64,000 nt of DNA from an uncultured bacterium (GTDB taxonomy: Bacteria > Chloroflexota > UBA5177 > JANWHV01), in NCBI GenBank assembly GCA_963827235.1, contig CAWHAE010000018.1, forward strand, positions 128,001-192,000, given 5' to 3'. Under the pieces are notes generated by a model. The model was not told the DNA's origin. It did not search any database and saw nothing but the letters and a program-made list of their open reading frames with translations. Each line of letters opens with the position of its first letter. Position 1 is the stretch's first letter. Made by a program: the position numbers and the translations under genes. Positions 37,960 to 53,188 of the stretch are shown in pieces.

Positions 37960-38100
37960 GCGTCCGCGGTAGTCCCGTTCCAGCGCTGCCTGCGCCGCCG
38001 GGCGCGTGAGCATGTGCCTGGTATTATGCAAGTGTTCCCGTTCTGCGACGGGTTTCCGCCTCCCCCAAGCACTGCGCCTATATGCGGAGCCGAACACCAG

Positions 38101-39128
<1,028 letters not shown>

Positions 39129-39132
<4 letters not shown>

Positions 39133-40091
39133 AGGCGTGGCAGTCCCTGCGAGCACGTCGCAAGGCTCCTCTGGCGGGCGATCGGCGAGTTACAAGCGGC
39201 CGGCCGCCGTCCCCGCTGCTCGACGAGACCGCACTTCGCCAGCTGATGCGCCTGCGCCTGGAGAGCGGTCGTGCGATCACGGGCTGGTTTACAGGAGAAC
39301 ATGATGGCCAGCGCAGGACCCAGGCTCTGGAGTTCGAGGACTACCGCGGCTACGTGCCCGGCGACGACTTTCGCCTGATCGACTGGAACGCGTACGGCCG
39401 CCTCGGCGAGCTGTTTGCGAAAACGTCGCGCGCCGAGGAGACCCTCCAGGTCTCGTTGCTGGTCGACTGCAGCCGATCGATGGATTGGGGCACTCCCAGC
39501 AAGCTCCGCTATGCCAAGCAAGTAGCGGCTGCCCTGGGTGCCCTCGCGCTGCTGCACGGCGATCCCGTACGTGTCTACGCGCTCGGAGACGGCAGGGCCG
39601 TCCCCGGCGCGCCGCTGTACAATCCGACCGACCTCCCGGCCTTGATTGCCGGACTGGAAAGCCTGCCGCAGCTCTCGGCAACCGACTTCGCGGGTTCCGC
39701 CTCCGAGTTCCAGCGCACCGCCCAGCCGGGCGGCGCCATCTTCGTGCTCAGCGACCTGCTCTCGTCGATGGCAGACGTGGCCATGCTGGGCTTCCTGGCG
39801 CTCCCGGGCACCTCGCTCGTCGTCGTGCACGTCTATGATCCGGCGGAGGCGCGGCCCGAGCTGGGCGGAACGGTTGAGCTGCGCGACCGCGAGTCCGGTG
39901 CCACGGCCGTGCTCTCGGTAACACCCAACCTGCGCCGGCTCTATGCGATCCGGTTTCAGGAGCGTTCGCTTGAGATCCGCGACCGCCTCGCTGCCGCAGA
40001 CGCCGGCTATGTCACCGCTCCTACCTCGGTGACTTCGGTCGACCTGGTCGCCGGCGGTCTGCATACCGAAGGCATGGTCGCGCGCGGCTGA
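39129..40091 (+). CDS. DUF58 domain protein (MoxR partner)
   Basis: EFEDYRGYVPGDDFRLIDWN, LVDCSRSM, VLSDLL, DPAE; GTGA overlap with moxR. Confidence 0.93.
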
Positions 40092-40166
40092 GCGGCCGCT
40101 CGCAGCGGCAGCCGGGTGACTCCGCGCTGCCGCCGTGCCGGATCGGTTGAGCCGCTCAGGGCATGG

Positions 40167-40694
40167 TCATGGATGCGGATTCGAGCTGAACCGGGTGAAG
40201 TGCAGCGAAATGACCGCGGCCTGTCCCAGCACGAAGCCCGTCACCAGCTCGGCCCCCGCGTGCTGCTGCACGTGGAGCACGCCGATCTTTGGCCCGGTGA
40301 ACAAGCCTGCGTTCACCTGCGCCGAGAGCGCCTTGCCCAGATGCACGAACTGTGTGAGATAGAGCACGGTCGTACCGGTCTTCGCGTAGAGCGATAGTAT
40401 GCCGCTCATCACCGGATGGGGTTGGCGCGGTACCACGCGGCCGAATATGGTGAGCGTACCCGATGTGGCGAAGCTCGAGCTGCTCGATGCCGTCAGGTGA
40501 TAGCGGCCCTGAAACGCCGCCAGGCCCCCGGGCCAGCCGGCCGCGGTCGCAGCCGTGGCCGCCGAAGCGGTCGGCGCGGCGACAGCAACGCCTCCGCCGG
40601 CCGGGGCAACGGCACCAAGACAGAGAGCCACTGCCAGTACAATGATCGTCCTCAGGCCGCGGCGGCGCGATCGCCGTGCGTAGTTGGGTACCAT
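40167..40694 (-). CDS. Small secreted beta-rich hypothetical protein, paralogue of 49190-49693
   Basis: AAGGAGG RBS; Arg-rich n-region and signal peptide; alternating beta-strand pattern; directly downstream of the PQQ-type gene. Confidence 0.75.
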   Translation of the reverse strand: MVPNYARRSRRRGLRTIIVLAVALCLGAVAPAGGGVAVAAPTASAATAATAAGWPGGLAAFQGRYHLTASSSSSFATSGTLTIFGRVVPRQPHPVMSGILSLYAKTGTTVLYLTQFVHLGKALSAQVNAGLFTGPKIGVLHVQQHAGAELVTGFVLGQAAVISLHFTRFSSNPHP

Positions 40695-40729
40695 GTGACG
40701 CCTCCTTCTCGTGGCTGTCTGCAGGAAGC

Positions 40730-42376
40730 TCAGCCGCCAACCGCCGGCAACGGCTTGATCGGGGCTCCTCCGAGCTTTAGTACCAGAACGCTTGCACCCA
40801 GCTTGCCGAGCTGCTGTGCGCCGGTGACTGCCGATCCGCCGAGCACGATGGCGACGTACTCCGTGCCCTTGACCTCGTACAAGACGGGCGCGGACCCCGT
40901 CGCCAGGCCCACGTCGGCAGTCCACACCACTTTGCCGGTGCGGTCGTCAAAGGCATAGAAGGTACCGTCTTGACCGGACGAGAGCACGAGGTGGCTCGCC
41001 GTCACGCTGGCGCCGCCGATCATCGGCGTTGGGAGTTTGAGCTTCCAGAGGAACTTGCCGGTGTTCACGTCGACCGCCGAAAAGGTGCCGCTGGCTTTGC
41101 CCACCGGGCTGCGTGTGCCGGCGAAATCGCGCTCTCCGCCCGTTGCGGCGCCCGTGATCTTGATGCGGAAGCACTGATCGATGCCCGGCACGTAGACCGC
41201 GTGGGTCAGAGGGCTGTAGGCAACCGGCGAATAGGGCGAGCCGCCGATCGTGCCCGGGCACGACACGACACCCTTGGTGGTCGGCGCCGGATGGTTGACG
41301 CGCACGTACTGCAAGGGAGCAAAGAGCAGTTTGCCGGTCGCGGCGTTCAGGAGGTACACGAGGCCGTTCTTGCCGGCTTCCGCGACCCCGCGCACCTTCT
41401 TGCCGGCGATCTGAGCGTCGAAGAGCACGACGGGAGAGGCGGCGCCGTAGCTCCATTGATCGTGCGGCGTCTCCTGGTAGTACCAGACGAGCTTACCCGT
41501 GCGAGCCTGCAGAGCGAGAATCGAATCAGTGTAGAGGTCGGGGCCTTCCCGGCCGGTGCCCAGCAGCACGGGCGAGGGTGTGCCGGTGCCGATGTAGACC
41601 AGGCCGGTGGTGGTGTCGACCGTGGGTGGCATGTATGTGCCGCCGCCTCCGTGATTGCCCTTCGGCACCCAACCGTGACCGGGCGCCGGAACGGTATAGA
41701 ATCGCCACAGGAGTTTGCCCGTGTTGGCATCGTAGGCGGCAACAAACCCGCGCACGCCGTCCTGACTGCCCGACGACCCGACAAAGACGATACCATTCCA
41801 GATCGTCGGCGCCATCGTCTCGTAATAGCCCGCATGTGGATCGGCTGCCTGCGCCTGCCACAGCCGCTCTCCGGTGTCCTCGGTAATCGCCTGCAACCGG
41901 CCATCAAAGGTCACAATGTATACCTTGCCGTTCGAGACGGCAACGCCGCGGTTGACCGAGACGCCGTAGCCGCCCACGCCGGTCGACAACGAGAAATCCA
42001 CCGGCGATGCGTAGCGCCAGGTCTCCTGCCCGGTGACCGCGTTCAGGGCGATGATCTCGTCCGTGTTGGTGGTGACAAACATGGTGCTGCCGATCACCTG
42101 CGGGAAGCTCTCCGACAGTACCTGGTAAGGACCGAGACCGGCGGTCCAGGCCACTCCCAGCTTCTTGATGTTGCCGGGATTCACCTGGGTGAGCGGTGAG
42201 AATCGAGTGTTGTCGCGGTCGCCGCCGAAATACGGCCAGTCGGCGCCGGCTACCGCCGCGGTCGCCGTGGCTCGTGCCGGGCCGGCTGCCAGGCTCGGGT
42301 AGGATAAGACCCCGGCTCCAACCAGGACGAATGTCGCGGCCCACCGCCATCGTTTCCCAGACCACCAAAGCGCCAT
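40730..42376 (-). CDS. Secreted PQQ-dependent dehydrogenase-like beta-propeller lacking canonical metal ligands
   Basis: DWPYFGG..RFSPLTQVN..L.VAW, VNRGVA, GVRGFVAAYDANTGKLLWRF, TGKLVWYYQETPHD, GKNG, CPG; GGAGG RBS. Confidence 0.9.
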   Translation of the reverse strand: MALWWSGKRWRWAATFVLVGAGVLSYPSLAAGPARATATAAVAGADWPYFGGDRDNTRFSPLTQVNPGNIKKLGVAWTAGLGPYQVLSESFPQVIGSTMFVTTNTDEIIALNAVTGQETWRYASPVDFSLSTGVGGYGVSVNRGVAVSNGKVYIVTFDGRLQAITEDTGERLWQAQAADPHAGYYETMAPTIWNGIVFVGSSGSQDGVRGFVAAYDANTGKLLWRFYTVPAPGHGWVPKGNHGGGGTYMPPTVDTTTGLVYIGTGTPSPVLLGTGREGPDLYTDSILALQARTGKLVWYYQETPHDQWSYGAASPVVLFDAQIAGKKVRGVAEAGKNGLVYLLNAATGKLLFAPLQYVRVNHPAPTTKGVVSCPGTIGGSPYSPVAYSPLTHAVYVPGIDQCFRIKITGAATGGERDFAGTRSPVGKASGTFSAVDVNTGKFLWKLKLPTPMIGGASVTASHLVLSSGQDGTFYAFDDRTGKVVWTADVGLATGSAPVLYEVKGTEYVAIVLGGSAVTGAQQLGKLGASVLVLKLGGAPIKPLPAVGG

Positions 42377-42613
42377 TGCCGTGCTGCCCCTCCTCCACGT
42401 CTCGTAGCATGAAGCGACTTCAACCACACCCGTACGATCGGCGGCTGCCGGCGCCCATCCTCCTCATGCGAACCTTTGCCGTCAATTGGTTGCGTTCAAG
42501 CCACCTATTCTACAGTATGCACATGTTTTATATGTTGGTACTATGTGAACTGAATACCCCCCGTCGAGGCCGGAGGCACTCCGGTATCGTCACAACGTCG
42601 AGAGGATCAATCG

Positions 42614-44395
42614 GTGCTGTTTCCGGCCACGCTGGAATCGCCAAGGGCAACGCCCGCAGGGCGTCACCGGTCGCCCACACCTATCCGCTACGAGCGCGTA
42701 CTGGCGCTCTGCATCTCCGGATGGCGGGCCGGTCCCAGGGTCGCGGCGGGCTGGTTTGCGCCTTCCCTGGATGCTGCACTGCGCATGGCTCCCCGCCTGG
42801 CGCCGGAGACGCAGCCATGCGCGGCTCTATTCGTGTCGGCCGCCGAGACTGGCGGCCCACGCTCCGGCCGTGCCTCCGGAGACAGGACCGGTTCGTTGAC
42901 ACCGGCCGGGAAGGCCGAGTTTCGGCCGGCGGCAAGCCATATTTCGGTTCGCGCAGCCTTGGCGCGCATCCACGCCTGTATCCGGCGTGCCTGGCTCGTG
43001 GCCGCCTGCCTGCGCGCGTTGCAAGCGGGCTTGTTCGCCGGACTCGTCATGGCCCTCGCCGTGTTCTGGCAAGGCTGGAGCCCCATGGTCGTGCCGCTCG
43101 CCGTGCTCGCCACGACCGCGATCCTATTCTCGATTGCTGCCCGCAGGCAGCCCGACATGGATGCGACGGCACGATACCTCGACCGGAAGCTCGGCCTGAA
43201 GGAAGCGCTGGCCACCGCCCTCGATCTGGAGTCGGCCGGCAGACGGTCGAGCCTGAGCCTGCTGCAGAGGCAGGCCGCGGCCGACCTTGCCGGCACGATA
43301 GCTGCCCGCCAAATCACCACACCGTCAGTCACCATCGGTGCGTGGGCGATCTCTACCCTGCTGCTCTGCACGACGGCGGCTGTACTGCTCGTACCGCACG
43401 CCGACCAGGCTACGGTGCGAATGGCGGCCATGGCCGGGCGACAACCCGCAAACCCGGCAGCCACCTTCCCCAGCACCGCGGCGGTCGCGACGAGCAGCTC
43501 TATCGTGGTGCGCGTTGCCGTGGTCGGCACGACGCGCGACACTGCCGCGCCGGGCCGGCGCGCCGTGCGGCCGTCGGGCGCCCAGCGAGCGACAGTGATC
43601 AGGTCGGCGAGCAAGGCGCAACCCGCGGGCAGGCAGTCCGCGACTACAGGCAGTACCGGCAAGTCCGGCACCGCAGGCACGGTCAAGGGGCAGACGCCGG
43701 GGAGCGGCGCTCAGCGCACCCTGCCGTTCCTCCAGGGCAGCCAGAGTTTTCTGCCTACGTCACCGTCCGCCTCCGGACGGGCAGGAACGGTCCTGCCGGG
43801 CTCGCAGGCACGACCTGCCGGCGCGAGCGCCGGGACAAGGGGGAGCGCGAGCGGGGCGGCAACGGGCACCGGTGCAGCGGCCAGGAGCAGCACCGCCAAG
43901 CCAACGGGCAAGAGCGCAGGGCAGAACGGCCAGGGATCCGCGAGCCATGCCGGAGGGTTGGCGGGCAAGCAGGGCAACGGCGCCGCCTCGACAGGCCAGT
44001 GCTTGTACGGGTGCCTGCAAATCACCAAAGCTCAGCTCGCAACGCCAGGTCTGATTACCGGGAAAGGCCAGTTCAGCGGGAGCGGCACTCCAGGCGGTTC
44101 GACGGCAGGGCACTCGGCCGGCAGTGCGCCGAAATCCGGCAGCGCGGTGGCTTCCAGCTCCCCAAAAGGGCGCCAGCTCAATCTCACCAGTCCGTACAAT
44201 GCATCGCAGTCGGGGTCCAGCAGCTCCAGCCAGGCAAACGGCCACAACGGAGCCGGATCGGCGAAACAGTCGGTCGTGTCGGCCGGCGCCGCGGTAGCCC
44301 AGTCGTTCCAGTATGTGCCGCCCGACGCCAATCTGCGGCAGCCTGGCGATGCGAGCCTGGTCGCGCGGTACTTCCGGCATGGGTCGGCGGCGTAG
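42614..44395 (+). CDS. Membrane protein with long Gly/Ser/Ala-rich linker, MoxR/vWA-cluster associated; start uncertain (possibly 42785 or later)
   Basis: TM helices, ARYLDRKLGLKEALATAL, low-complexity region, C-terminal LVARYF as in MoxR-operon partners. Confidence 0.7.
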   Translation: MLFPATLESPRATPAGRHRSPTPIRYERVLALCISGWRAGPRVAAGWFAPSLDAALRMAPRLAPETQPCAALFVSAAETGGPRSGRASGDRTGSLTPAGKAEFRPAASHISVRAALARIHACIRRAWLVAACLRALQAGLFAGLVMALAVFWQGWSPMVVPLAVLATTAILFSIAARRQPDMDATARYLDRKLGLKEALATALDLESAGRRSSLSLLQRQAAADLAGTIAARQITTPSVTIGAWAISTLLLCTTAAVLLVPHADQATVRMAAMAGRQPANPAATFPSTAAVATSSSIVVRVAVVGTTRDTAAPGRRAVRPSGAQRATVIRSASKAQPAGRQSATTGSTGKSGTAGTVKGQTPGSGAQRTLPFLQGSQSFLPTSPSASGRAGTVLPGSQARPAGASAGTRGSASGAATGTGAAARSSTAKPTGKSAGQNGQGSASHAGGLAGKQGNGAASTGQCLYGCLQITKAQLATPGLITGKGQFSGSGTPGGSTAGHSAGSAPKSGSAVASSSPKGRQLNLTSPYNASQSGSSSSSQANGHNGAGSAKQSVVSAGAAVAQSFQYVPPDANLRQPGDASLVARYFRHGSAA

Positions 44396-44416
44396 TCGGG
44401 GCGGTAGCCGGCGCTC

Positions 44417-46279
44417 ATGACGCTGCTCAGTCCCCTTGCCCTGCTCGGATTGGTCCTGGTGCCAGCTCTTGTGAGCCTGCATCTCCGGCGCCGCCAGGCC
44501 CGTCCGGTCGAGATCCCCAGCCTGATCCTGTGGATCGACCTGGGAGCAATGGCAGCCTCGTCCGGCAGGCGTTGGCGCATCGAGCAAGCACTCTTGCTCC
44601 TGCTTCAGATCCTTGCCGTCGTTTCGCTCACAGTCGTGCTGGCTCAACCGAGCGGCAGCGCGACCGTGTTGGGCACGCGCGTCTACGTGATCGACGACGG
44701 GATGCTCATGCGCGTTGCCGATCCGGCGCCGTCCCGGCTGCAGGCGGCCAAGACGCTCATCGCCGGGGACATCCAGTCCGCGCCGGCCGGCACGAGCCTG
44801 GCAATAGTCGCCGCGGGGGCAGTGCCGCGTCTGCTGATCGCGACGACCGATCGGGCATCGGCCCTGACGGCATTGAGAAGACTGCAGCCGGTGCCTGCAA
44901 CACCCGATTTCGAAGCAGCGCTGCGCCTTGCCGCCGGCCTCCTTTCCTCACGAAACGCCCGCCTGCGGATCGCCTATTCTGCCGGCGAGCAGTTGCCGCC
45001 GGTCGGCGTCGCGGCGGGTATGCTCTCACGCGATGCTATCGGCGACGATCGCGGCAACCAAGCAGTCGCCGGCCTGGCCGTTCGCTGCGCCGGCGGCAGC
45101 TCTTGCAACGCCTTCGCGGCCATTCAGAACAGCGCTGCCTCCGGGCTCCAGGATACCGTGCTGATTGAAGCCGACGGCCGGCTGCTCGGTGAGAAGCAGC
45201 TGGATCTGCCGGCCCTCTCGAGCACGAACCTCAGCTTCGCGGTGCCCGCGGCGCGGCACGTGCTTCAGGTCACGCTGGCGCGGCAGGATCTTGCCGCCGC
45301 CGACAACGCCGCTTTCGCGGTCATTCCCGGGCAGCGGAACTCTACTGCCACCGTCGTGGGCACCGCGACGCTTGCTGCTGCCGTGGCCAGGGCGCTGAGT
45401 GCCGTGCCGGGCGTTCGCGTGGTCACGCTGCCGCCGAGCAAATATGGAACCGTGGCGCGCGGCAGGGCAGGGCTTCTGGTACTTGCCGGCTGGATGCCAG
45501 CCGGGTCGCTGCCGCCGACGCCGAGTCTGCTGATCGTGGATCCACCGCGCTTTCCCGGGGGGTCCGCGCCCGCGCCGCTGGCTGATACCACGATCAGCGG
45601 CGAGGATCTCGCGAATCCGCTGCTCTCCGGCGTCGACCTGACGTCACTCAGCATCCCGCCCGGCAGCGCCTGGCAGCTAGCCCTGCCGGCAGGATTGCAG
45701 CCGGCAGTGTGGACCAGCGCCGGACCGCTCATCTCGGCTGGATTGCTCGACGGACGGCGTGTCGTCGTCCTGGGTTTCGACCCCACGGCGTCCAATCTCG
45801 CCCAGCTTCCCGCTTTTCCCTTGCTCGCCGCGAACGTGGTGCAGTGGACAGGCGGATGGCTGCCCCAGTCGGCCGTGCCTGGTTCCGGCCTCTCGGTGGC
45901 CGTTCCGCCTGCCACCACCTCGATCGAGGTATCAACTCAGGCAGCGCTGGGCGCCGCGGCCGTCTCCTCTCGCCTCGTCGCCAGTGGAAGCAACGCGTAC
46001 CTGACCGTGCCGTCGCCCGGTATCTATACGGTGACCGAGCGCGGCGCGTGGGGCAGCCGCGAGGCACAGATCGCGGTCAGTGCCGGCCCTCCCGTGCAGA
46101 CCCTGCCGGCCGCGGCGATCGCAGCAGGCTCGAACAGCGCGGCCACGGTGCCGCTCGAGAAGCCGGCAACCCTCTTGGTCTGGCCATGGCTGGCAGTCCT
46201 GGCAGCGCTGCTGATCGCCGTGGAGTGGCTGGCGCTTCTGTCTCGTTATCGCTCGGCCGCCAGGCCCGCGGCGATGTGA
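44417..46279 (+). CDS. BatA-domain / vWA-like membrane protein
   Basis: LLSPLALLGL..LHL...EIPSLILW..LLLLQIL..LAQP BatA N-terminus; degenerate MIDAS VIDDGMLM; DNAA; C-terminal WPWL..EW. Confidence 0.85.
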   Translation: MTLLSPLALLGLVLVPALVSLHLRRRQARPVEIPSLILWIDLGAMAASSGRRWRIEQALLLLLQILAVVSLTVVLAQPSGSATVLGTRVYVIDDGMLMRVADPAPSRLQAAKTLIAGDIQSAPAGTSLAIVAAGAVPRLLIATTDRASALTALRRLQPVPATPDFEAALRLAAGLLSSRNARLRIAYSAGEQLPPVGVAAGMLSRDAIGDDRGNQAVAGLAVRCAGGSSCNAFAAIQNSAASGLQDTVLIEADGRLLGEKQLDLPALSSTNLSFAVPAARHVLQVTLARQDLAAADNAAFAVIPGQRNSTATVVGTATLAAAVARALSAVPGVRVVTLPPSKYGTVARGRAGLLVLAGWMPAGSLPPTPSLLIVDPPRFPGGSAPAPLADTTISGEDLANPLLSGVDLTSLSIPPGSAWQLALPAGLQPAVWTSAGPLISAGLLDGRRVVVLGFDPTASNLAQLPAFPLLAANVVQWTGGWLPQSAVPGSGLSVAVPPATTSIEVSTQAALGAAAVSSRLVASGSNAYLTVPSPGIYTVTERGAWGSREAQIAVSAGPPVQTLPAAAIAAGSNSAATVPLEKPATLLVWPWLAVLAALLIAVEWLALLSRYRSAARPAAM

Positions 46280-46295
46280 AGGACGGCTAGCCAGA

Positions 46296-48902
46296 ATGAC
46301 GCATGCCGTGATCGCTGCCGCGTTCGTCCTTCAATCGCCGCGCGCGCTCTGGCTCTTGCTCCTGCCCATCGCCCTGGTCGCGCTGACCGCGGCACGCCTT
46401 CGCCAGAGTCGAGGCGAGCGCGGCAACGCCGTGGCGACGAGCCTTCGCGGCATTGCTCTCTGTGTTCTCGTGGTGGCGCTGGCACAGCCTACCTGGCAGG
46501 TGACCCAGACGTCGATGGGCCTCACCCTCGTGCTCGATAATTCCGCGAGCATCTCGCCCACGGGCCGCGCCACGGAAGCACACTGGCTCCTAGACGGCGC
46601 CGCCGCTGCGTCCAGTGCGTCGCCGCTACGCGTCGTCACCTTTGCCGGCAGCGGGTCGGCGCTCACCGTGGAAGGCCCGTTGAGCCGAAGCACCGTCGAC
46701 GGCCTGTTGCGGCCCGCCGGCGATGCATCGCAGACCGACCTCGCCGGTGCCCTCGAGCTGGCCGCCGGTATCGCACCGTCGCATTCTCGGGTCGTCGTGC
46801 TGACGGACGGGCTTCAAACCACGGGCGACGCCGGCTCGGCCCTATCCAGTCTGGTCGCCGGGCACCTGACCGTCGACACGGTAGCGCTGTCCGAACCACT
46901 GCAACCGGACGAGGCTGTGACCCGAGTGGCGCTGCCGCCGTCGGCACCGGAGGGCGCGGCACAGGTGGTCCAGGTGACGATCAACTCCACCGAGGCCCAG
47001 ACATCGACCCTGAGAGTACGGATCGATGGGCGGACCATCGGAAGCCAGTCGCTAGCCCTGCCCGCAGGCACGAGCTCGTATCTCGTCAACCTACCCGGTC
47101 AGGCTGCCGGATGGCACACGGTGCAGGTCACCGCGCGGGCGAGCGCGGACGTGGTGCCGCAGAACAACAGCCTATCCGCGGTGGTCGACGTAGTGCCGCC
47201 GCCAAGCGTGCTCCTCGTCGACCGGCAAGCGCCAAGCAGTGAGGCCCGGACCGTGCTCGGCGCTGCTCCCGTCTCCATCGTGGAGACGCTCCCGCGAGCC
47301 GTGCCCACATCTCCCGCTCGGCTTGCCCAATACAGCTCCGTCGTGTTGGACAATCTGCCTGCATCAGCCTTTTCTGCCGCGCAGGTAGCGGCACTGGACA
47401 CGGCGGTGCAGAAGCAGGGCGTGGGGCTCTTCGTACTGGGTGGCTCGCACAGCCTGACTCTTGGCCACTATAGCGAGACCGCGCTCGAGCGTCTACTGCC
47501 CCTGCAGAGCGAGACGCCCGCCAGCCTGCAGAACGGGAACGTCGCCCTGCAGCTCGTGCTCGACCGATCGGGAAGCATGGACGACCTCGCCGGCGGTGAC
47601 GTGCCCAAGATTCAGATGTCTCGCTCGGCCGCGCGCCTTGCCGCCGGCTTCGCCATGCAGCACACCGACGACTTTGGCATTCTCGCCTTCGACCAGGTCT
47701 CGCACATTCTCGTGCCCATGGGCAAGGTGACCTCGGCCGACGCGGCTCGCCTGAATCGCGCCATCAACGGCATGTTCAGCGACGGCGGCACCAACATCTA
47801 CCAGGCCCTGCAGCAGGGCATCCAACAGGTGAGCCGGAGCGCGGCGCCGTATCGCCACATCATCCTGATGACGGACGGCAGGAGCGACCCGGCAAACTAC
47901 CAGCCGTTGTTCCGCGAAGCGGCGGCCGATAGGGTCACTATTTCAACGGTAGGCCTCGGCCTGGATGCCGACACACAGCTGCTGCGGTACATGGCCGCCC
48001 AGGGTAAAGGGCGCTTCTACTTCACGAACAACGGCGCCGACCTGCCGCGCATATTCGCGGAGGAGGCGCGCTTATCGGCCGGGTCGGCGGCGGTCACCGG
48101 CACGATCGCCGTGCAGATGGCGCACAGCAGCCCGCTGACTCGAGATCTCCCCAGTGGGCGGCTCCCGAATCTCGCCGGGTATGTCGCCACGGTACTGAAG
48201 CCCGATGCCTCCGCCGATCTGGTGACCAGCATCCGGAACCGCCGGCCCGATCCGCTGCTTGCCCACTGGCAGTACGGTCTGGGCAGGGTGGCCGTCTGGA
48301 CGCCCGGGCTGGAAGGCTCGTGGCCGGCACCATGGCGTCCGGCGCAGGACGAATTTTGGTCGGACGTGCTCCAGTGGTCGTTGCGCGGCCCCTCGACGCC
48401 GGCCTACGCGGCTTCGATTGTGCCGTCCCCGGCCGGCTACTCAATCCAGATCGATACGCTGACCAACACCGGCGCCGCCCAGGACCTGCAGCAGATCGAC
48501 GTCGATGTCCGCGCTCCCGACGGCAGGACGTCCAATCTACTGGCGATACAGACCGAGCCGGGGCTCTATCGAGTGCCGCTGGCGCTGACCGCGCCAGGTG
48601 CCTATGTGGTGACCGCCAGGCCGGTCTTCGGCGGCGCTGCAGCCCAGACCACCACCGTGCTCGCGGTGCCCTATGCGACCGAATACCGGCCCGCGGCAGC
48701 GAACGTCGCCCTGCTCGAGACAATCGCGGGCTCCACCGGAGGTGCTGTCCTGTCTGCTGCCGGCGCGCCGCCCTCCGCGCGACCGCCTGCTGGACAGACG
48801 GAGAACCTGGCCTGGCCGCTCGCGCTGGCCGCTCTCCTCCTCTTTTTCGCCGCAGTCGGTGCGGAGCGGCTGGCGACCGACATGGAGCCGGCAGGCCCGT
48901 GA
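46296..48902 (+). CDS. Double vWA-domain membrane protein with GATase-like middle region
   Basis: LDNSAS/TDL/LTDG and LDRSGSM/GGTNI/MTDG MIDAS sets; LGGSHS..LERLLP; PLLAHWQYGLGRVAVWT; C-terminal TM. Confidence 0.9.
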   Translation: MTHAVIAAAFVLQSPRALWLLLLPIALVALTAARLRQSRGERGNAVATSLRGIALCVLVVALAQPTWQVTQTSMGLTLVLDNSASISPTGRATEAHWLLDGAAAASSASPLRVVTFAGSGSALTVEGPLSRSTVDGLLRPAGDASQTDLAGALELAAGIAPSHSRVVVLTDGLQTTGDAGSALSSLVAGHLTVDTVALSEPLQPDEAVTRVALPPSAPEGAAQVVQVTINSTEAQTSTLRVRIDGRTIGSQSLALPAGTSSYLVNLPGQAAGWHTVQVTARASADVVPQNNSLSAVVDVVPPPSVLLVDRQAPSSEARTVLGAAPVSIVETLPRAVPTSPARLAQYSSVVLDNLPASAFSAAQVAALDTAVQKQGVGLFVLGGSHSLTLGHYSETALERLLPLQSETPASLQNGNVALQLVLDRSGSMDDLAGGDVPKIQMSRSAARLAAGFAMQHTDDFGILAFDQVSHILVPMGKVTSADAARLNRAINGMFSDGGTNIYQALQQGIQQVSRSAAPYRHIILMTDGRSDPANYQPLFREAAADRVTISTVGLGLDADTQLLRYMAAQGKGRFYFTNNGADLPRIFAEEARLSAGSAAVTGTIAVQMAHSSPLTRDLPSGRLPNLAGYVATVLKPDASADLVTSIRNRRPDPLLAHWQYGLGRVAVWTPGLEGSWPAPWRPAQDEFWSDVLQWSLRGPSTPAYAASIVPSPAGYSIQIDTLTNTGAAQDLQQIDVDVRAPDGRTSNLLAIQTEPGLYRVPLALTAPGAYVVTARPVFGGAAAQTTTVLAVPYATEYRPAAANVALLETIAGSTGGAVLSAAGAPPSARPPAGQTENLAWPLALAALLLFFAAVGAERLATDMEPAGP

Positions 48903-49016
48903 GTCTTACCGGCACACGGCTGTGCCGGCCGCATAGCGAGCCGCGCAACGGTCGGCGACGCGCACTCAATTGCCACCGCTCATCCTGGTCGCAAGCACAG
49001 AGCAATGAAGCAATTA

Positions 49017-49057
49017 TTGACAGTATAAGTTTGCTAATCTATTATCGAAGTAGCAAA
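49017..49057 (+). promoter_or_regulatory. Near-consensus sigma70 promoter with overlapping inverted repeat
   Basis: TTGACA 49017-49022, 17 bp, TATTAT 49040-49045; tttgcta (49030) / tagcaaa (49051) flank the -10; AT-rich island. Confidence 0.75.
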
Positions 49058-49189
49058 GATTACAGGTTTCTCCCCGAGCCAGGGCGCCATTTCTGTCGGC
49101 TGGGAAATCCCCACCCGCTGGGGATGAGGCATGCCTGGCGAACGACGCAGGCATCTCACAGGAGAAGCCGTCCCACTGTGGGGGAAAGG

Positions 49190-49693
49190 ATGGCAATGAC
49201 GGCAGTCCCGCGCAGATCCATGTTGTTCGCCGCGTGTGCGCTCCTGGTATCGGCCCTGCTGTTGGCCGGCACGAGCACGGCGGTCGTCCGCGCAACGACC
49301 GGGCCGTCGGCGAATCACCCGCCTACGTTCAAGGTGAACAACAAGTTCGCTGCGCTCTTCACGGGTGAATTTACGCTCAAGTCCGTGCCCGCGTCGGCGC
49401 GCATTCAATCGGCGGCGCTCGGCATCGAAGTCGACGACAACGGTAACCTCTACGGGATTGCCCAGTTCTACGGGTACGACGCGTCTGGATTCCAGACGAG
49501 CTGGGTAGCTTCCCTCTACCACTTCCGGCAGACGGCCAAGACCCAGATGTCGCTGGATCTGCTGACCTCGTCGCTCTCCGTCGTGCTCGGGCGCATGGTA
49601 GTTGCCCCTCCAAGCCACGGCAGCATGACCGGCAGTCTCATCCTGAGCGGCCACACATACCCCGTCGTGTTCCACAAGATCTCCAACGCCTGA
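49190..49693 (+). CDS. Small secreted beta-rich hypothetical protein, paralogue of 40167-40694
   Basis: Signal peptide beginning PRRSML (possible Tat); beta-strand pattern; lies between the promoter and the PQQ-cupredoxin gene. Confidence 0.8.
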   Translation: MAMTAVPRRSMLFAACALLVSALLLAGTSTAVVRATTGPSANHPPTFKVNNKFAALFTGEFTLKSVPASARIQSAALGIEVDDNGNLYGIAQFYGYDASGFQTSWVASLYHFRQTAKTQMSLDLLTSSLSVVLGRMVVAPPSHGSMTGSLILSGHTYPVVFHKISNA

Positions 49694-49921
49694 TAGCTCC
49701 TCGCTATCCATCCTTGCGCGCCGTCCACCTGCAGCCACGTGAGCGGAGTGACGGCGCGCGCACCGACGAAGGGAGGGATGGCTCAAAGCGCCCGTGCGCG
49801 AAGGCCAGCCGTGTGTGCCGGTCCAGGACGCGCGCAGCTCGATTGACGTCGGCTGCTACGGGCCACGTGAGTAGAGTCCGCGGATATCCCATATCGAGAC
49901 GTGAATGTAGGGGGGACAGAC

Positions 49922-52060
49922 ATGCACGTATCCATGCGGCGAGGCGCTGCCATGGTGGCAATCGCTTCGCTTCTGGTAGCCGGACTGGCGGGGGTCAGCG
50001 AGGCGCAGGAGCAGGCATCGGCGGCCAAGGCGGCTGCCGGCGGCAACGTGGATTGGGCACTCTTTGGCGGCAATGCCGATAATACCCGGTACTCCACGCT
50101 CACGCAGATCGACGCGAGCACCGTCGGCAAGCTTGGCATCGCCTGGACGGCGTCCGAAGGCAACGGTTTGTCCGAGTTCGAGACCGTGCCCGTAGTGGTC
50201 AACGGCGTCATGTATTACACCACCAACAGCGACCAGGTCCGCGCCGTCAACGCGGCCACCGGGCAGCTCATGTGGCAGTACACGCCGAAGGTCGACTTCT
50301 ATAAGTCGGTTGCCGGCGGAGGCGGCGGCCTGCCGACCAATCGCGGCGTCACGATCGCCAACGGAACTGTATACTTGACCACCTTCGACGCGCGGCTAAT
50401 CGCCCTGCAGGCGTCCACCGGCGAGCAGCTCTGGTCCAGCAACATCGCCAGTCCCGCCGAAAACTACTCCGAGTCTTCGCCGGCCACCTACTGGAACGGC
50501 ATGCTGTTCGTAGGCAGCGAGGAAGGCGATGCCGGACTGCGCGGCTTCGAGGCGGCTTTCGATGCCAAGACCGGCAAGCAGATCTGGAAGTTCTACACCG
50601 TGCCCGCGCCAGGCCAGGGCTGGATGCCCGCGGTCGGCGACCACGGCGGCGGCGATGTCTGGATGCCTGCCACCGTCGATCCCACGACCGGCTTGGTCTA
50701 TTTCGGCACCGGCAATCCCAGCCCGGACTTCAACAACGTGCAGCGGCCCGGCTGCAACCAGTGGGCCAACGCGGTCGTGGCGCTCGACGCCAAGACCGGC
50801 AAGCTGGCATGGGCGCATACCGAGTTCTGCAACGACGAGTGGGACTACGATTCGCACCAGGAGCCGATGCTGTTCAACATGACCATCAAGGGCCAGATGG
50901 TTCGCGTGCTCGGCCACGGCAACAAGGCCGGCCAGTACTTCTTCTACAACGCCAAGACCGGTGCCGTGATCAGCAAGACGGCGTTCCTGGGAGGCTTCAG
51001 CGTGCCGCATCTCAAGCCCAACGCGGCAGGCGTCAAGGTCTGCCCCGGCGCTTCGGGCGGCATCGAGTACGGACCTCCGGCCTTCAGCCCGCAGACGAGC
51101 CTGGTTTACCAGGGCTCCAACGTCGAATGCGAGATCTTCAAGACGCTGCCCATGGCAGACACGAACTCGCACAGTAAGGGGCAGGTTGACACCGGCGGCT
51201 CCGCCGCGGGTGCTGGAACCATCAACGGCGCCATGAATGCCATCGACCCGGCCACCGGCAAGGTTGTCTGGAAGGATACGCTTGGCAAGCCGATGAACGC
51301 CGGGGCGCTTACCACGGCCGGCGGCCTGGTCTTCGCCGGCGCCGACACGGGCAAGCTCTATGCATTCGACGCAGCCACGGGCAAGATCCTCTGGCAGCCC
51401 GATCTAGGTCTCGGCTTCGGCGCACCGCCAATTGCCTATCAGGTGAACGGCACGGAGTACATTGCCGTGGCGGCCGGCGGAAACGCTATCTCAGCCGGCG
51501 ACGCCGTGCCGCTTGGCGGCACCCTGGTCGTCTTCAAGCTGGGCGGCAAGCCGATCGCGAAGCTTCCGTCGGTCACTAACGGTTCCATGGTGCAGGTCAC
51601 GCTGCCCTCGCTCGCCGGCTATAAGCAGGTGGACAAGTTTGCCTATGTCAACGCGGCGCAGCACACCGTGGTTCTGCAGATCACCGCGGCGCTCAACGGC
51701 AACAATGCCGGCTTCAACTACGACGGCTACGCCAAGGGTCAGGCTACCTTCACCGTGCCGGCGCACTGGAACGTCGACATCGAGTACCGCAATCTGGGCG
51801 CCCTTCCGCACAGTCTTGCCATCGCCGACGGCATCACGCAGCCGGTGAAGTTCGAGACGTTCGGCTTCGCGCCGGTGTTGAGCCCGTCCGTGACTACCGG
51901 CACGACGAACAAGACGTATACGCTCCTCGGCTTCGACGCCGACCACGCGGGCAAGTTCTACCTGATTTGCGACGTGCCTGGACACCTGGCCAGCGGCATG
52001 TGGGACACGTTCGTGGTCTCCTCGACGGCAACCACGCCGTCGATTACCACGACCTCCTAG
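49922..52060 (+). CDS. Secreted PQQ-dependent dehydrogenase fused to a C-terminal sulfocyanin/rusticyanin-type cupredoxin
   Basis: DW..FGG..RYSTLTQID, ETVPVVVNGVMY, TNRGV, GGDVW, GTGNPSP, DEWDYD, NKAG; C-terminal FNYDG..VPAHWNV..N..LPHS..CDVPGHLASGM. Confidence 0.92.
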   Translation: MHVSMRRGAAMVAIASLLVAGLAGVSEAQEQASAAKAAAGGNVDWALFGGNADNTRYSTLTQIDASTVGKLGIAWTASEGNGLSEFETVPVVVNGVMYYTTNSDQVRAVNAATGQLMWQYTPKVDFYKSVAGGGGGLPTNRGVTIANGTVYLTTFDARLIALQASTGEQLWSSNIASPAENYSESSPATYWNGMLFVGSEEGDAGLRGFEAAFDAKTGKQIWKFYTVPAPGQGWMPAVGDHGGGDVWMPATVDPTTGLVYFGTGNPSPDFNNVQRPGCNQWANAVVALDAKTGKLAWAHTEFCNDEWDYDSHQEPMLFNMTIKGQMVRVLGHGNKAGQYFFYNAKTGAVISKTAFLGGFSVPHLKPNAAGVKVCPGASGGIEYGPPAFSPQTSLVYQGSNVECEIFKTLPMADTNSHSKGQVDTGGSAAGAGTINGAMNAIDPATGKVVWKDTLGKPMNAGALTTAGGLVFAGADTGKLYAFDAATGKILWQPDLGLGFGAPPIAYQVNGTEYIAVAAGGNAISAGDAVPLGGTLVVFKLGGKPIAKLPSVTNGSMVQVTLPSLAGYKQVDKFAYVNAAQHTVVLQITAALNGNNAGFNYDGYAKGQATFTVPAHWNVDIEYRNLGALPHSLAIADGITQPVKFETFGFAPVLSPSVTTGTTNKTYTLLGFDADHAGKFYLICDVPGHLASGMWDTFVVSSTATTPSITTTS

Positions 52061-52219
52061 AGTTCACCGGCGAAGGCCGGAAACGTTGAGCCGGCGGCGA
52101 ACGGGACACCGTCGCGGTGACGGTGTCCCGTGCGCTTGTCGGCAGGAGCTGGAAGACACGTGCCGGCTGATGCCTGCGTGCCCGCGGCAGCATGCCCGTC
52201 CGTTTGCCGAGCACCCGGC

Positions 52220-53188
52220 TCAGCTCTCGACGAACACCGCTCCCTCCAGGTTGTAGCTCTTCGCCGAGAGGTTAGTGGGTAGCCTGATGGCCTGGAAGGT
52301 ACTGCCGCTGGGACGTATGACCCAGAAATACGCGTGCAGCTCGCTCCCGACCAGCACGTCGCCGGAGTATGCGGCCAGGCCGGCGGCGGGAGCAAAGAAC
52401 ACATCGCGAGAGAGCGTATCGGTGACATAGAGGCCCGCTTGAGCCCCGGCACCCGCAGCGGCCTGCCGGCGCGGCACTACCGCGATCGGGTTCGGACCAT
52501 CCGGGAGGTCGACCAGCGTTCTCGCCCGGCCGTGCGCGTCCATCGCCACCAGCGTGCCGCTCTTGCCGGCATCAACTGTGAGCAATGCCTGTCCCGACGC
52601 GGCGCCGAACTGAGGGGATGCAATCGCTACCTCGTCGGCGCCGCCTGGATCGTTGTACGTGCCGACCAGTGCCACTTTGCCCGCGGCATCCACCGTGAAC
52701 ACGCTACCGCCGCGCGGCGTGGCTCCGCCCGAGCGGCCGGTTGCCGCCACCAGTCTGTAGCCGAAATCTCCCACGGTGTCGAAGGCAAGTGCGCCGTCGG
52801 AGCGAGGCACGTGCGGCAGCGCGGCAAACACCGAGACGCTCTTGTCGCCGGCACCGATGCGGTAGATCTTGTTGTCGGGCGAGTGGCAGAAGATGTCGCC
52901 GCTCGCAAAGCCGTGCGAGCCGGGCGACGGGACGCAGCGCGTCTCCTCAACCTGCCTCGGCATAGCCGCGAACGGCGTCATCTTCTGCCCGGTGGGCGCG
53001 GCGGCGAAGACACGATTGGTGGTGTTGTCGACGTAGAGAAACTGATCGCCCGTCCATACCACGTCGGTGAGCCGCAGATCGGTACGAGCGAAGACGCTGA
53101 ACTGGATCGCGGGCGTGGCAGGACTCGCCGCCGTGAGTGGAAATAGCGTCACAGCCAGGGCGAGGCCCAGGACTTTCGGTGATTTCAT
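52220..53188 (-). CDS. Secreted hypothetical protein, probable beta-propeller
   Basis: Signal peptide; beta-repeat pattern (GALAFD, LPDGPNPIAV, LYVTD); GAGG RBS. Confidence 0.7.
   Translation of the reverse strand: MKSPKVLGLALAVTLFPLTAASPATPAIQFSVFARTDLRLTDVVWTGDQFLYVDNTTNRVFAAAPTGQKMTPFAAMPRQVEETRCVPSPGSHGFASGDIFCHSPDNKIYRIGAGDKSVSVFAALPHVPRSDGALAFDTVGDFGYRLVAATGRSGGATPRGGSVFTVDAAGKVALVGTYNDPGGADEVAIASPQFGAASGQALLTVDAGKSGTLVAMDAHGRARTLVDLPDGPNPIAVVPRRQAAAGAGAQAGLYVTDTLSRDVFFAPAAGLAAYSGDVLVGSELHAYFWVIRPSGSTFQAIRLPTNLSAKSYNLEGAVFVES

Follow-up and report, generated by a model that had tools for sequence, protein, structure and literature searches.

Pyrroloquinoline quinone (PQQ) dehydrogenases with a built-in redox domain have, to our knowledge, so far been known with haem, as quinohaemoproteins. 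In the type II quinohaemoprotein alcohol dehydrogenases (ADHs) of Comamonas testosteroni (1kb0) and Pseudomonas putida HK5 (1kv9, 1yiq), which are soluble and exported, a C-terminal one-electron domain with haem c is attached to the propeller via a linker, and electrons are passed to free azurin. The lanthanide-dependent PQQ dehydrogenases XoxF, PedH and ExaF (6dam, 4mae, 6zcv) have the same propeller fold, to which no redox domain is attached, and their electron acceptor is a cytochrome c encoded apart from the enzyme, while sulfocyanin SoxE, rusticyanin and auracyanin (1a8z, 1rcy, 6kol, 1qhq) are free or membrane-anchored blue-copper carriers. Here we analyse a 64,000-nucleotide stretch of DNA from an uncultured Chloroflexota bacterium (contig CAWHAE010000018.1, positions 128,001 to 192,000; hereafter the window), in which one gene at 49922..52060 (+) encodes a PQQ-dehydrogenase propeller and a SoxE-type cupredoxin domain in a single protein.

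The layout of this fusion protein is that of the type II quinohaemoprotein ADHs, and like them it is predicted to be soluble and exported. In contrast to these enzymes, which have a haem c domain, a vicinal Cys-Cys, a Glu metal ligand and a Thr at the position of Asp317, it has a type-1 copper domain and none of these features; we place it outside the quinohaemoprotein family because it has no haem site, and its cupredoxin is part of the enzyme instead of a free acceptor. XoxF, PedH and ExaF, to which it is about 30% identical, likewise have the Cys-Cys and the Glu ligand that it lacks. With sulfocyanin, rusticyanin and auracyanin it shares the fold, the His...Cys-x4-His-x4-Met arrangement and an N-terminal extension, but it carries this domain as the C-terminal part of a dehydrogenase. 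A precedent for a tethered cupredoxin as a built-in relay is the three-domain copper nitrite reductase of Hyphomicrobium denitrificans (6tfd, 2dv6), although its catalytic enzyme is a different one and receives electrons from the cupredoxin, the reverse of the direction proposed here. According to a passage of PMC6657660 (citing Toyama 2004), cupredoxins or quinones are reduced by PQQ dehydrogenases, and the abstract of PMC12723479 has free amicyanin taking electrons from methylamine dehydrogenase, a tryptophan tryptophylquinone (TTQ) enzyme. A full-text literature search, with subscription journals outside its cover, turned up no paper on a PQQ dehydrogenase with a fused cupredoxin; an earlier characterisation of the architecture would have counted against the reading given in a model-generated first-pass annotation of the window.

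Domain architecture of the fusion protein

The open reading frame (ORF) list gives the frame as 49901-52060 (+), with a translated part of 49901-52057. ATG 49922, which yields a protein of 712 residues with the stop ending at 52060, is likely a better start than GTG 49901, because it is preceded at 6-8 nucleotides by a Shine-Dalgarno-like run (AGGGGGGA) and because most homologues in a 47-row alignment start at the aligned Met. Residue numbers below are nevertheless counted from GTG 49901 and thus run 7 ahead of the real protein, from which 7 must be subtracted. A putative N-terminal signal peptide (49922..50005, MHVSMRRGAAMVAIASLLVAGLAGVSEA), read by eye, has a basic n-region, a hydrophobic core and an S-E-A end, a layout kept in homologues; in the structural model this region is a helix (residues 11-29) with a predicted local distance difference test score (pLDDT) below 50.

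The eight-bladed propeller follows at 50039..51544 (residues 47-548) and is recognised by Pfam PF01011 with E 4.9e-78 (263.7 bits against a cut-off of 26.7; residues 52-357 and beyond). Next comes a linker with a conserved L-P-S-L-x-G motif and then an extra N-terminal hairpin of the copper domain (together 51545..51646; strands 575-578 and 581-584 in the model). PF06525 (SoxE) covers 51647..52045 (residues 583-715) with 62.2 bits against a gathering score of 21 and spans profile positions 8-147 of 149; the first-pass annotation, made from the letters alone, had located the copper region at ~51640-52060, in agreement with this match. The AlphaFold2 model of the full-length protein, with 47 homologues as input, reached a mean pLDDT of 88.2 and a predicted TM-score of 0.87. 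The combination of a PQQ dehydrogenase and a sulfocyanin-type cupredoxin in one protein, as first suggested by that annotation, is thus borne out by Pfam, by the models and by conserved homologues, and every string it had quoted (SVAGGGGGLPTNRG, SEEGDAG, GNPSP, WDYDS, FNYDG, VPAHWNV, NLGALPHS and CDVPGHLASGM) is present in the translation.

A predicted type-1 copper domain at the C-terminus

The predicted copper ligands lie within 51809..52000, their codons having been checked individually: His637 (51809-51811), Cys690 (51968-51970), His695 (51983-51985) and Met700 (51998-52000). All four are invariant in 47/47 homologues of 47-85% identity and, in a set of 25 copper-domain sequences that includes free-standing paralogues, the two His and the Cys do not vary while Met is conserved at 90% or more. 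The complete His/Cys/His/Met set that had been read from the letters therefore holds, and copper binding is what it predicts. Cys690 is one of five cysteines in the protein (285, 310, 381, 410 and 690), and a search of its translation for the haem-attachment motif CxxCH found none, as had been noted before.

A separate model of residues 560-719, built from the 25 sequences, had a pLDDT of 87.2 and a cupredoxin fold matching rusticyanin and auracyanin, the outcome on which the initial assignment had been made to depend beforehand. With this model, Foldseek returned rusticyanins first (E 3e-7), then auracyanins and CuA domains. Among 48,161 chains compared by VIA-align, the best 50 rows were all of the cupredoxin fold, with Z values of 10.5 for 6tfd, 9.4 for auracyanin B and 9.1 for rusticyanin. 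Searched against the PDB, a domain profile likewise found the auracyanin-like 6kol (E 6.5e-12), the tethered cupredoxin of the NirK 6tfd (1.2e-11) and rusticyanin (2.5e-11), and in the alignment to 6kol the His and C-x4-H-x4-M ligands line up with those of the copper domain. An accompanying remark, that SoxE and rusticyanin are typical of acidophiles, proved to have no bearing here, the relatives being named as soil-type Chloroflexota and as Solirubrobacterales metagenome-assembled genomes.

A propeller active site without the Cys-Cys ring

In the sequence search, the solved structures that best matched the propeller were 1kb0 and 1kv9, both type II quinohaemoprotein ADHs (E 6e-66); 8gy2, 1yiq and the XoxF structures 6dam and 4mae came next. 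Foldseek with the full model agreed, with 1kv9, 1yiq and 1kb0 at E ~1e-43 (range to 1e-41), 28-30% identity and a query-normalised TM of ~0.63; the aligned spans of 555-595 columns are about the size of the propeller, and 1kv9, 1kb0, 6zcv and 6dam were all matched at probability 1.00.

For the roles of individual residues we rely on what we take to be established for methanol dehydrogenase and XoxF, namely that Glu, Asn and Asp are metal ligands, that the first Asp of the D-x-D pair is the base and that the second is a lanthanide ligand. In alignments to 1kb0, 1kv9 and 6dam, the vicinal Cys-Cys of the haem enzymes and of XoxF falls on Gly-Gly within a Gly139-Gly143 loop (50315..50329), and the Glu of GxE[YF]GVRG (GAEYGVRG or GGEFGVRG in the solved enzymes) falls on Asp210 (50528..50530), invariant in 47/47. 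The metal-ligand Asn is kept as Asn272 in a GTGN motif (50714..50716), also invariant in 47/47 and aligned with GTGN or GSGN of the solved enzymes. W314-D315-Y316-D317 (50840..50851) supplies the presumed catalytic Asp together with the extra Asp of lanthanide-type enzymes; D-E-W-D-Y-D is letter-for-letter as in XoxF 6dam, whereas the calcium-type enzymes 1kb0, 1kv9, 1yiq and 8gy2 have Thr at the second Asp. The residues that are invariant among the 47 full-length homologues include E94, R148, D210, W254, N272, D312, D317, K342 and, of the five glycines in the loop, three; D315 is conserved at 90% or more. The positions that in the solved enzymes contact PQQ or take part in catalysis (E94, R148, W254, N272, K342 and D315) are thus kept. 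These alignments to solved structures confirm the earlier reading of the active site as one with no vicinal Cys-Cys, Asp in place of Glu, the Asn retained and a D-Y-D.

A conserved fusion family in Chloroflexota and a few Solirubrobacterales

In 104 of the best 120 full-length-query matches, PF01011 and PF06525 occur together within a single protein of ~700 residues (47-85% identity), and a hidden Markov model (HMM) that we built of the copper domain was found in 105 of 121 proteins including the query. The named fused proteins among the listed matches are labelled 'Chloroflexi/Chloroflexota bacterium'. When 1.84 billion representatives clustered at 50% identity were searched, ~6 full-length proteins and 4 fragments among the best 150 reached into the copper domain, and the fusion family is compact in sequence space.

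Of 41 genomes sampled around the genome of the window, only those of its own genus gave matches at E <=1e-30, and no fusion match at this threshold was obtained in the 36 other genomes of the class and phylum. Within the genus, the number of fused copies was 2 in G000, at least 6 each in G002 and G004, 1 in G003 and none in G001. Species-representative genomes provided 49 loci with relatives (numbered with L below). Sixteen fused genes lie in 15 of them, 11 named Chloroflexota and 4 Actinomycetota (L043, L044, L046 and L072); L047 holds a truncated fused gene, and ~30 unfused relatives belong to Solirubrobacterales and other Actinomycetota. Taken together, these comparisons identify the fusion as a real conserved family of one genus of uncultured Chloroflexota and a few Solirubrobacterales. 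In the closest orthologous locus (L032:606-7653), a tandem array begins with a small gene of the A-T-T-G-P type described below, followed by two fused genes in succession and by a third propeller gene, which the end of the contig truncates.

We computed a maximum-likelihood tree of the propellers only (56 rows, quick search, LG+G4), rooted on a paralogue from the genome of the window that bears the Cys-Cys. Sequences with a propeller HMM score below 300 or fewer than 400 profile positions were left out of the tree and of the counts; this removed L039, where the gene is split, L047 and L075, where contig ends cut it, and the short or distant L076, L078 and L079. Fused genes form the base of three subclades, and the fused L043 and L044 have as their sister group a large unfused Solirubrobacterales clade (25 rows). 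These unfused sisters (e.g. L048 and L066), themselves uncharacterised, are 45-49% identical, belong to the same propeller clade, likewise have no Cys-Cys and keep the W-D-Y-D; they differ in having no copper domain, a different 139-143 loop and, often, an adjoining cytochrome c gene.

The copper domain may stand in for a cytochrome c partner

In 18 of the 25 rows of the unfused sister clade, a divergent ORF bears a class-I cytochrome c motif (F[TS]xxCxxCHTL[KQ]xAG), with its haem site 216-426 nucleotides upstream of where the dehydrogenase gene starts; of the remaining seven, three have a different CxxCH ORF no more than 2.5 kb away and four lack one. At the fused genes, a cytochrome c or CxxCH neighbour was found in 1 of 17 cases (L044, 2.2 kb away), and the only CxxCH in the window lies in the antisense frame of the small gene at 49190-49693. 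Conversely, the fetched flanks of the unfused genes (up to 10 kb a side) contained no free SoxE gene. This pattern suggests that the copper domain replaces a cytochrome c partner.

When the active-site comparison was extended from the single protein to the clade, the absence of the vicinal Cys-Cys (55/55 rows, the outgroup paralogue alone having it) and the W-D-Y-D held throughout, fused or unfused. The Asp at the Glu position carried over less completely, being present in 17/17 fused and in most unfused rows, with Asn, Ala or Ser in 7 of the 25 sister-clade rows. The loop at 139-143 separates the two groups, since [AS]GGG[GA]G, scored as at least four Gly in the five positions, occurs in 17/17 fused vs 1/38 unfused rows. 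In solved enzymes, the Cys-Cys loop presumably sits over PQQ and, in 1kb0, faces the haem domain. The Gly loop is therefore suggestive of an electron-exit surface remodelled at the place where the partner would dock.

Other electron-transfer proteins encoded in the genome

The genome of the window (7.98 Mb in 21 contigs, 95.9% complete, 9.06% contamination) contains one haem-copper oxidase operon, whose COX2 of 353 residues carries CxxCH and is thus caa3-like, and a CcsA-type cytochrome c assembly gene. Four further SoxE-type genes are present, namely a free sulfocyanin-like protein of 222 residues (C16:267375-268043), a tandem double sulfocyanin-like protein of 382 residues (C15:67267-68415, -), a SoxE domain fused to a CarboxypepD_reg-like domain (C10:69118-70329, +; 403 residues) and a SoxE-like protein of 192 residues (C12:1041950-1042528, +, equal to L086:8951-9529) that directly follows a Rieske gene (L086:8013-8954) and has His in place of the axial Met (CPVHNHVKFGH). 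A DoxD-Rieske fusion is encoded near this last gene.

Proposed function and alternative explanations

We consider it probable that the fusion is an exported quinoprotein dehydrogenase belonging to the methanol/ethanol (PQQ-ADH) superfamily whose electron acceptor, a type-1 copper site, is built in, and which may be termed a 'quino-cuproprotein'. The architecture comes from sequence, models and comparison, and from it we infer the cofactors, the activity and the electron route. A substrate (alcohol, aldehyde or sugar) would be oxidised at PQQ and its metal ion, and the resulting PQQH2 would be re-oxidised by the tethered Cu(II) domain in two one-electron steps. For this, the copper domain would dock over the PQQ funnel, where the loop of five Gly, free of side chains, takes the place of the Cys-Cys ring. 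The reduced copper domain could then deliver its electrons to the respiratory chain through one of the free sulfocyanin-like proteins or the single caa3-like oxidase, and would serve as the haem c domain does in type II quinohaemoprotein ADHs, or as the separate cytochrome c does in the unfused sisters.

Several observations weigh against this proposal. The protein scores below the cut-offs of the curated models for each of its parts, with 357 bits for the PQQ methanol/ethanol family TIGR03075 (cut-off 480.05) and 63.9 bits for the sulfocyanin TIGR03094 (equivalog cut-off 168.4), so that it belongs to both superfamilies and to no curated subfamily; two hallmarks of PQQ-ADHs, the Cys-Cys and the Glu ligand, are absent. 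On the propeller tree, the fused/unfused label requires at least four changes, three of them forced by well-supported branches, and related rows are not independent; a single gain followed by several losses of the fusion would be compatible with this tree, whose root was not inferred. The association of the Gly loop with fusion reduces to three independent contrasts (sign test p 0.25), from which significance is unreachable. The idea that copper is used for want of an ability to make cytochrome c was rejected, and copper is not forced by a lack of haem c, because the genome has both CcsA and a COX2 with CxxCH. Finally, an HMM search of the genome of the window found no pqqC, the only pqqE-like matches were of a generic radical-SAM kind (77.6 bits, where the cut-off is 381), and tblastn with the PqqB, PqqC and PqqD of congeners gave nothing.

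The missing biosynthesis genes bear on an explanation that we regard as improbable, in which the propeller is an 'empty' quinoprotein that makes no use of PQQ, holds another cofactor or has a binding role, and the copper domain performs some other redox task. Besides the absence of pqqB, C, D and E from this genome, the missing Cys-Cys and Glu ligand speak for it, as does the second-best NCBIfam model, TIGR04528 ('acido-empty-quinoprotein group A'), and a passage of PMC6315138 advances the same idea for PQQ-domain proteins of a methanogen without PQQ synthesis. However, the 325 bits obtained with TIGR04528 are far under its cut-off of 650, and the aligned PQQ-contacting and catalytic positions are invariant, or nearly so, across the 47 homologues. 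Moreover, in two of the four congeners, G002 and G004 (L081 and L082), pqqC scores 325 bits (cut-off 240) and is accompanied by pqqB, D and E, and these are the congeners with the most fused copies; because the pqqC search succeeded there, we regard it as valid for the genome of the window. The pqqB-C-D-E cluster is absent from the assemblies G000, G001 and G003. Scavenging of PQQ by non-producers is well known, and either the organism scavenges PQQ or its pqq operon would lie in the unassembled remainder of the genome.

Returning to the proposed quino-cuproprotein, a lanthanide seems to us somewhat likelier than calcium at its metal site, on a nearly balanced judgement, because the extra Asp of lanthanide enzymes is present; the choice is less certain because Asp replaces the Glu ligand. 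A fusion that works as proposed with calcium is a serious contender to which we give slightly less than even weight. The closest solved relatives by sequence are calcium-type quinohaemoproteins, Asp is shorter than Glu, which makes the site unlike that of every characterised lanthanide enzyme, and the D-x-D signature alone is no proof of a lanthanide. Set against this, D317 is present in 47/47 homologues and aligns with the lanthanide-ligand Asp of XoxF 6dam, where the four calcium-type enzymes have Thr, and work on XoxF, ExaF and PedH has established that this second Asp is needed for lanthanide use. The first-pass annotation had called the D-x-D compatible with a lanthanide and not diagnostic of one, an appropriate caution given that the Glu-to-Asp change makes any prediction unsafe.

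Still less probable, and in our view very unlikely, is a reversed flow in which the copper domain is the point of electron entry from Fe(II), Mn(II) or another cupredoxin and the propeller is a scaffold or a reductase. Rusticyanin is indeed among the closest solved relatives of the copper domain, and a passage of PMC6315138 ties PQQ-domain proteins and rusticyanin/sulfocyanin to metal oxidation. Yet no member of the dehydrogenase catalytic set is missing from the propeller, the unfused sisters have a cytochrome c partner as in ordinary PQQ-ADH/cytochrome pairs, and no iron- or manganese-oxidation genes were found among the neighbours scanned. Electron transfer from PQQH2 to copper is, besides, downhill at typical potentials. 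As for an assembly or gene-calling artefact that joined two genes, nothing favours it except L039:1903-4035, where a fused gene is split into two ORFs (395 and 290 residues) by a frameshift or a sequencing error; it is refuted by the continuous frame without internal stop and by the recurrence of the same single-ORF layout in 104 of the best 120 independent clusters, which come from several sources, in the 16 genes of 15 loci and in three congeners.

Quinohaemoproteins are prized for biosensors and biofuel cells for their direct electron transfer to electrodes, and a natural blue-copper version would be a second such design, differing in potential and not dependent on haem maturation. Because the family has no ring, has one metal ligand changed and keeps the lanthanide Asp, it would provide a natural experiment on two long-debated questions of quinoprotein chemistry, the purpose of the Cys-Cys ring and what decides between calcium and lanthanide use. 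The sister enzymes, which appear to have exchanged the copper domain for a neighbouring cytochrome c gene, could serve as matched pairs for studying the co-evolution of the electron-exit surface and its partner. Through this family, soil Chloroflexota and Solirubrobacterales, both poorly known, might join the organisms with lanthanide- and PQQ-dependent metabolism and those that take part in PQQ cross-feeding.

A small secreted protein encoded beside the fusion gene

Upstream of the fusion gene by 228 nucleotides and on the same strand, a small gene (49190..49693, +) encodes a protein of 167 residues and of no known family, with a predicted signal peptide and a mature end that starts with an invariant A-T-T-G-P. 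Pfam gave no match for it, its homologues form 22 clusters that are all unnamed or 'hypothetical', and the ESM Atlas returned nothing usable (best scores 0.87, unnamed clusters). An HMM of this A-T-T-G-P family finds a member next to the fusion in 10 of the 16 related fused loci (L032, L036 twice, L038, L040, L042, L043, L044, L046, L047 and L072) and has no match in the fused loci L033, L034, L035, L037, L039 and L041; it also matches near the unfused relatives L062, L069, L070, L071 and L074. We regard the small protein as a candidate accessory subunit or maturation factor of the fusion.

The genome contains exactly two A-T-T-G-P copies, and the second (L088:13127-13747, -) is directly upstream of a different PQQ-cupredoxin fusion on contig C14 (C14:102802-104934, -, equal to L088:10803-12935). 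This dehydrogenase of 710 residues has the canonical Cys-Cys, the Glu ligand and W-D-F-D, and its C-terminus matches a plastocyanin/amicyanin-type cupredoxin (PF00127, 28.8 bits against 21.2; amicyanin E ~1e-5), so that this one genome encodes PQQ-cupredoxin fusions of two independent kinds. Combining all of these elements, the fusion family might represent an undescribed enzyme class, a lanthanide-type PQQ dehydrogenase with neither Cys-Cys ring nor haem c, whose tethered blue copper would feed a copper-based extracytoplasmic chain of free sulfocyanin-like carriers and Rieske-linked SoxE, with a new A-T-T-G-P small subunit paired also with the independently evolved PQQ-amicyanin-like fusion, and with scavenged PQQ; in this full form we hold the picture to be doubtful.

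A putative sigma-70-like promoter (TTGACA-17-TATTAT, 49017..49045, +), a consensus match only with 11 of 12 consensus positions, lies upstream of the small gene; two such sites occur in 3.6 kb, against 0.6 expected from shuffles. A terminator scan of 48800-52400 found none, and an Rfam scan of the whole window gave no match.

Gene neighbourhood and a second propeller

Downstream, a secreted protein of 322 residues without a family (52220..53188, -; no Pfam match above threshold) is a possible conserved neighbour. It is 61% identical to L041:12175-13197, which lies beside a fused gene, and 44% identical to a second copy, L041:8755-9846; among the related loci it was seen only in L041. Except for the small gene, each locus surrounds its fused gene with different neighbours (sugar ABC transporters, short-chain dehydrogenases, GH65, regulators), and these point to no particular substrate. 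In the actinomycetotal locus L046, a protein of 550 residues with an SCO1/SenC copper-chaperone domain (L046:12072-13724, +) is encoded directly downstream of the fused gene.

A second PQQ-type propeller of 565 residues, with no copper domain, is encoded in the window at 40730-42427 (-). It is probably not a working dehydrogenase, because Gln, Thr, Ser and Gly occupy the positions of the metal ligands and of the catalytic Asp/base. Clade-mates of this propeller adjoin fused genes in L043, L044 and L046. A small ORF downstream of it (~40167-40700, minus strand) was considered as a member of the A-T-T-G-P family and rejected, having no HMM relation to it. The second propeller is flanked by genes for a MoxR AAA+ protein (38014-39132) and a DUF58 protein (39129-40091), and between the two propeller genes are those for a protein of 593 residues and of no known family (42614-44395), a BatA/VWA protein (44417-46279) and a VWA protein (46296-48902). 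For these last three there is synteny with L040:3327-9469, which precedes a fused gene, and the gene set at 38014-48902 has what we take to be a resemblance to the metal-insertion genes mxaRSACKL.

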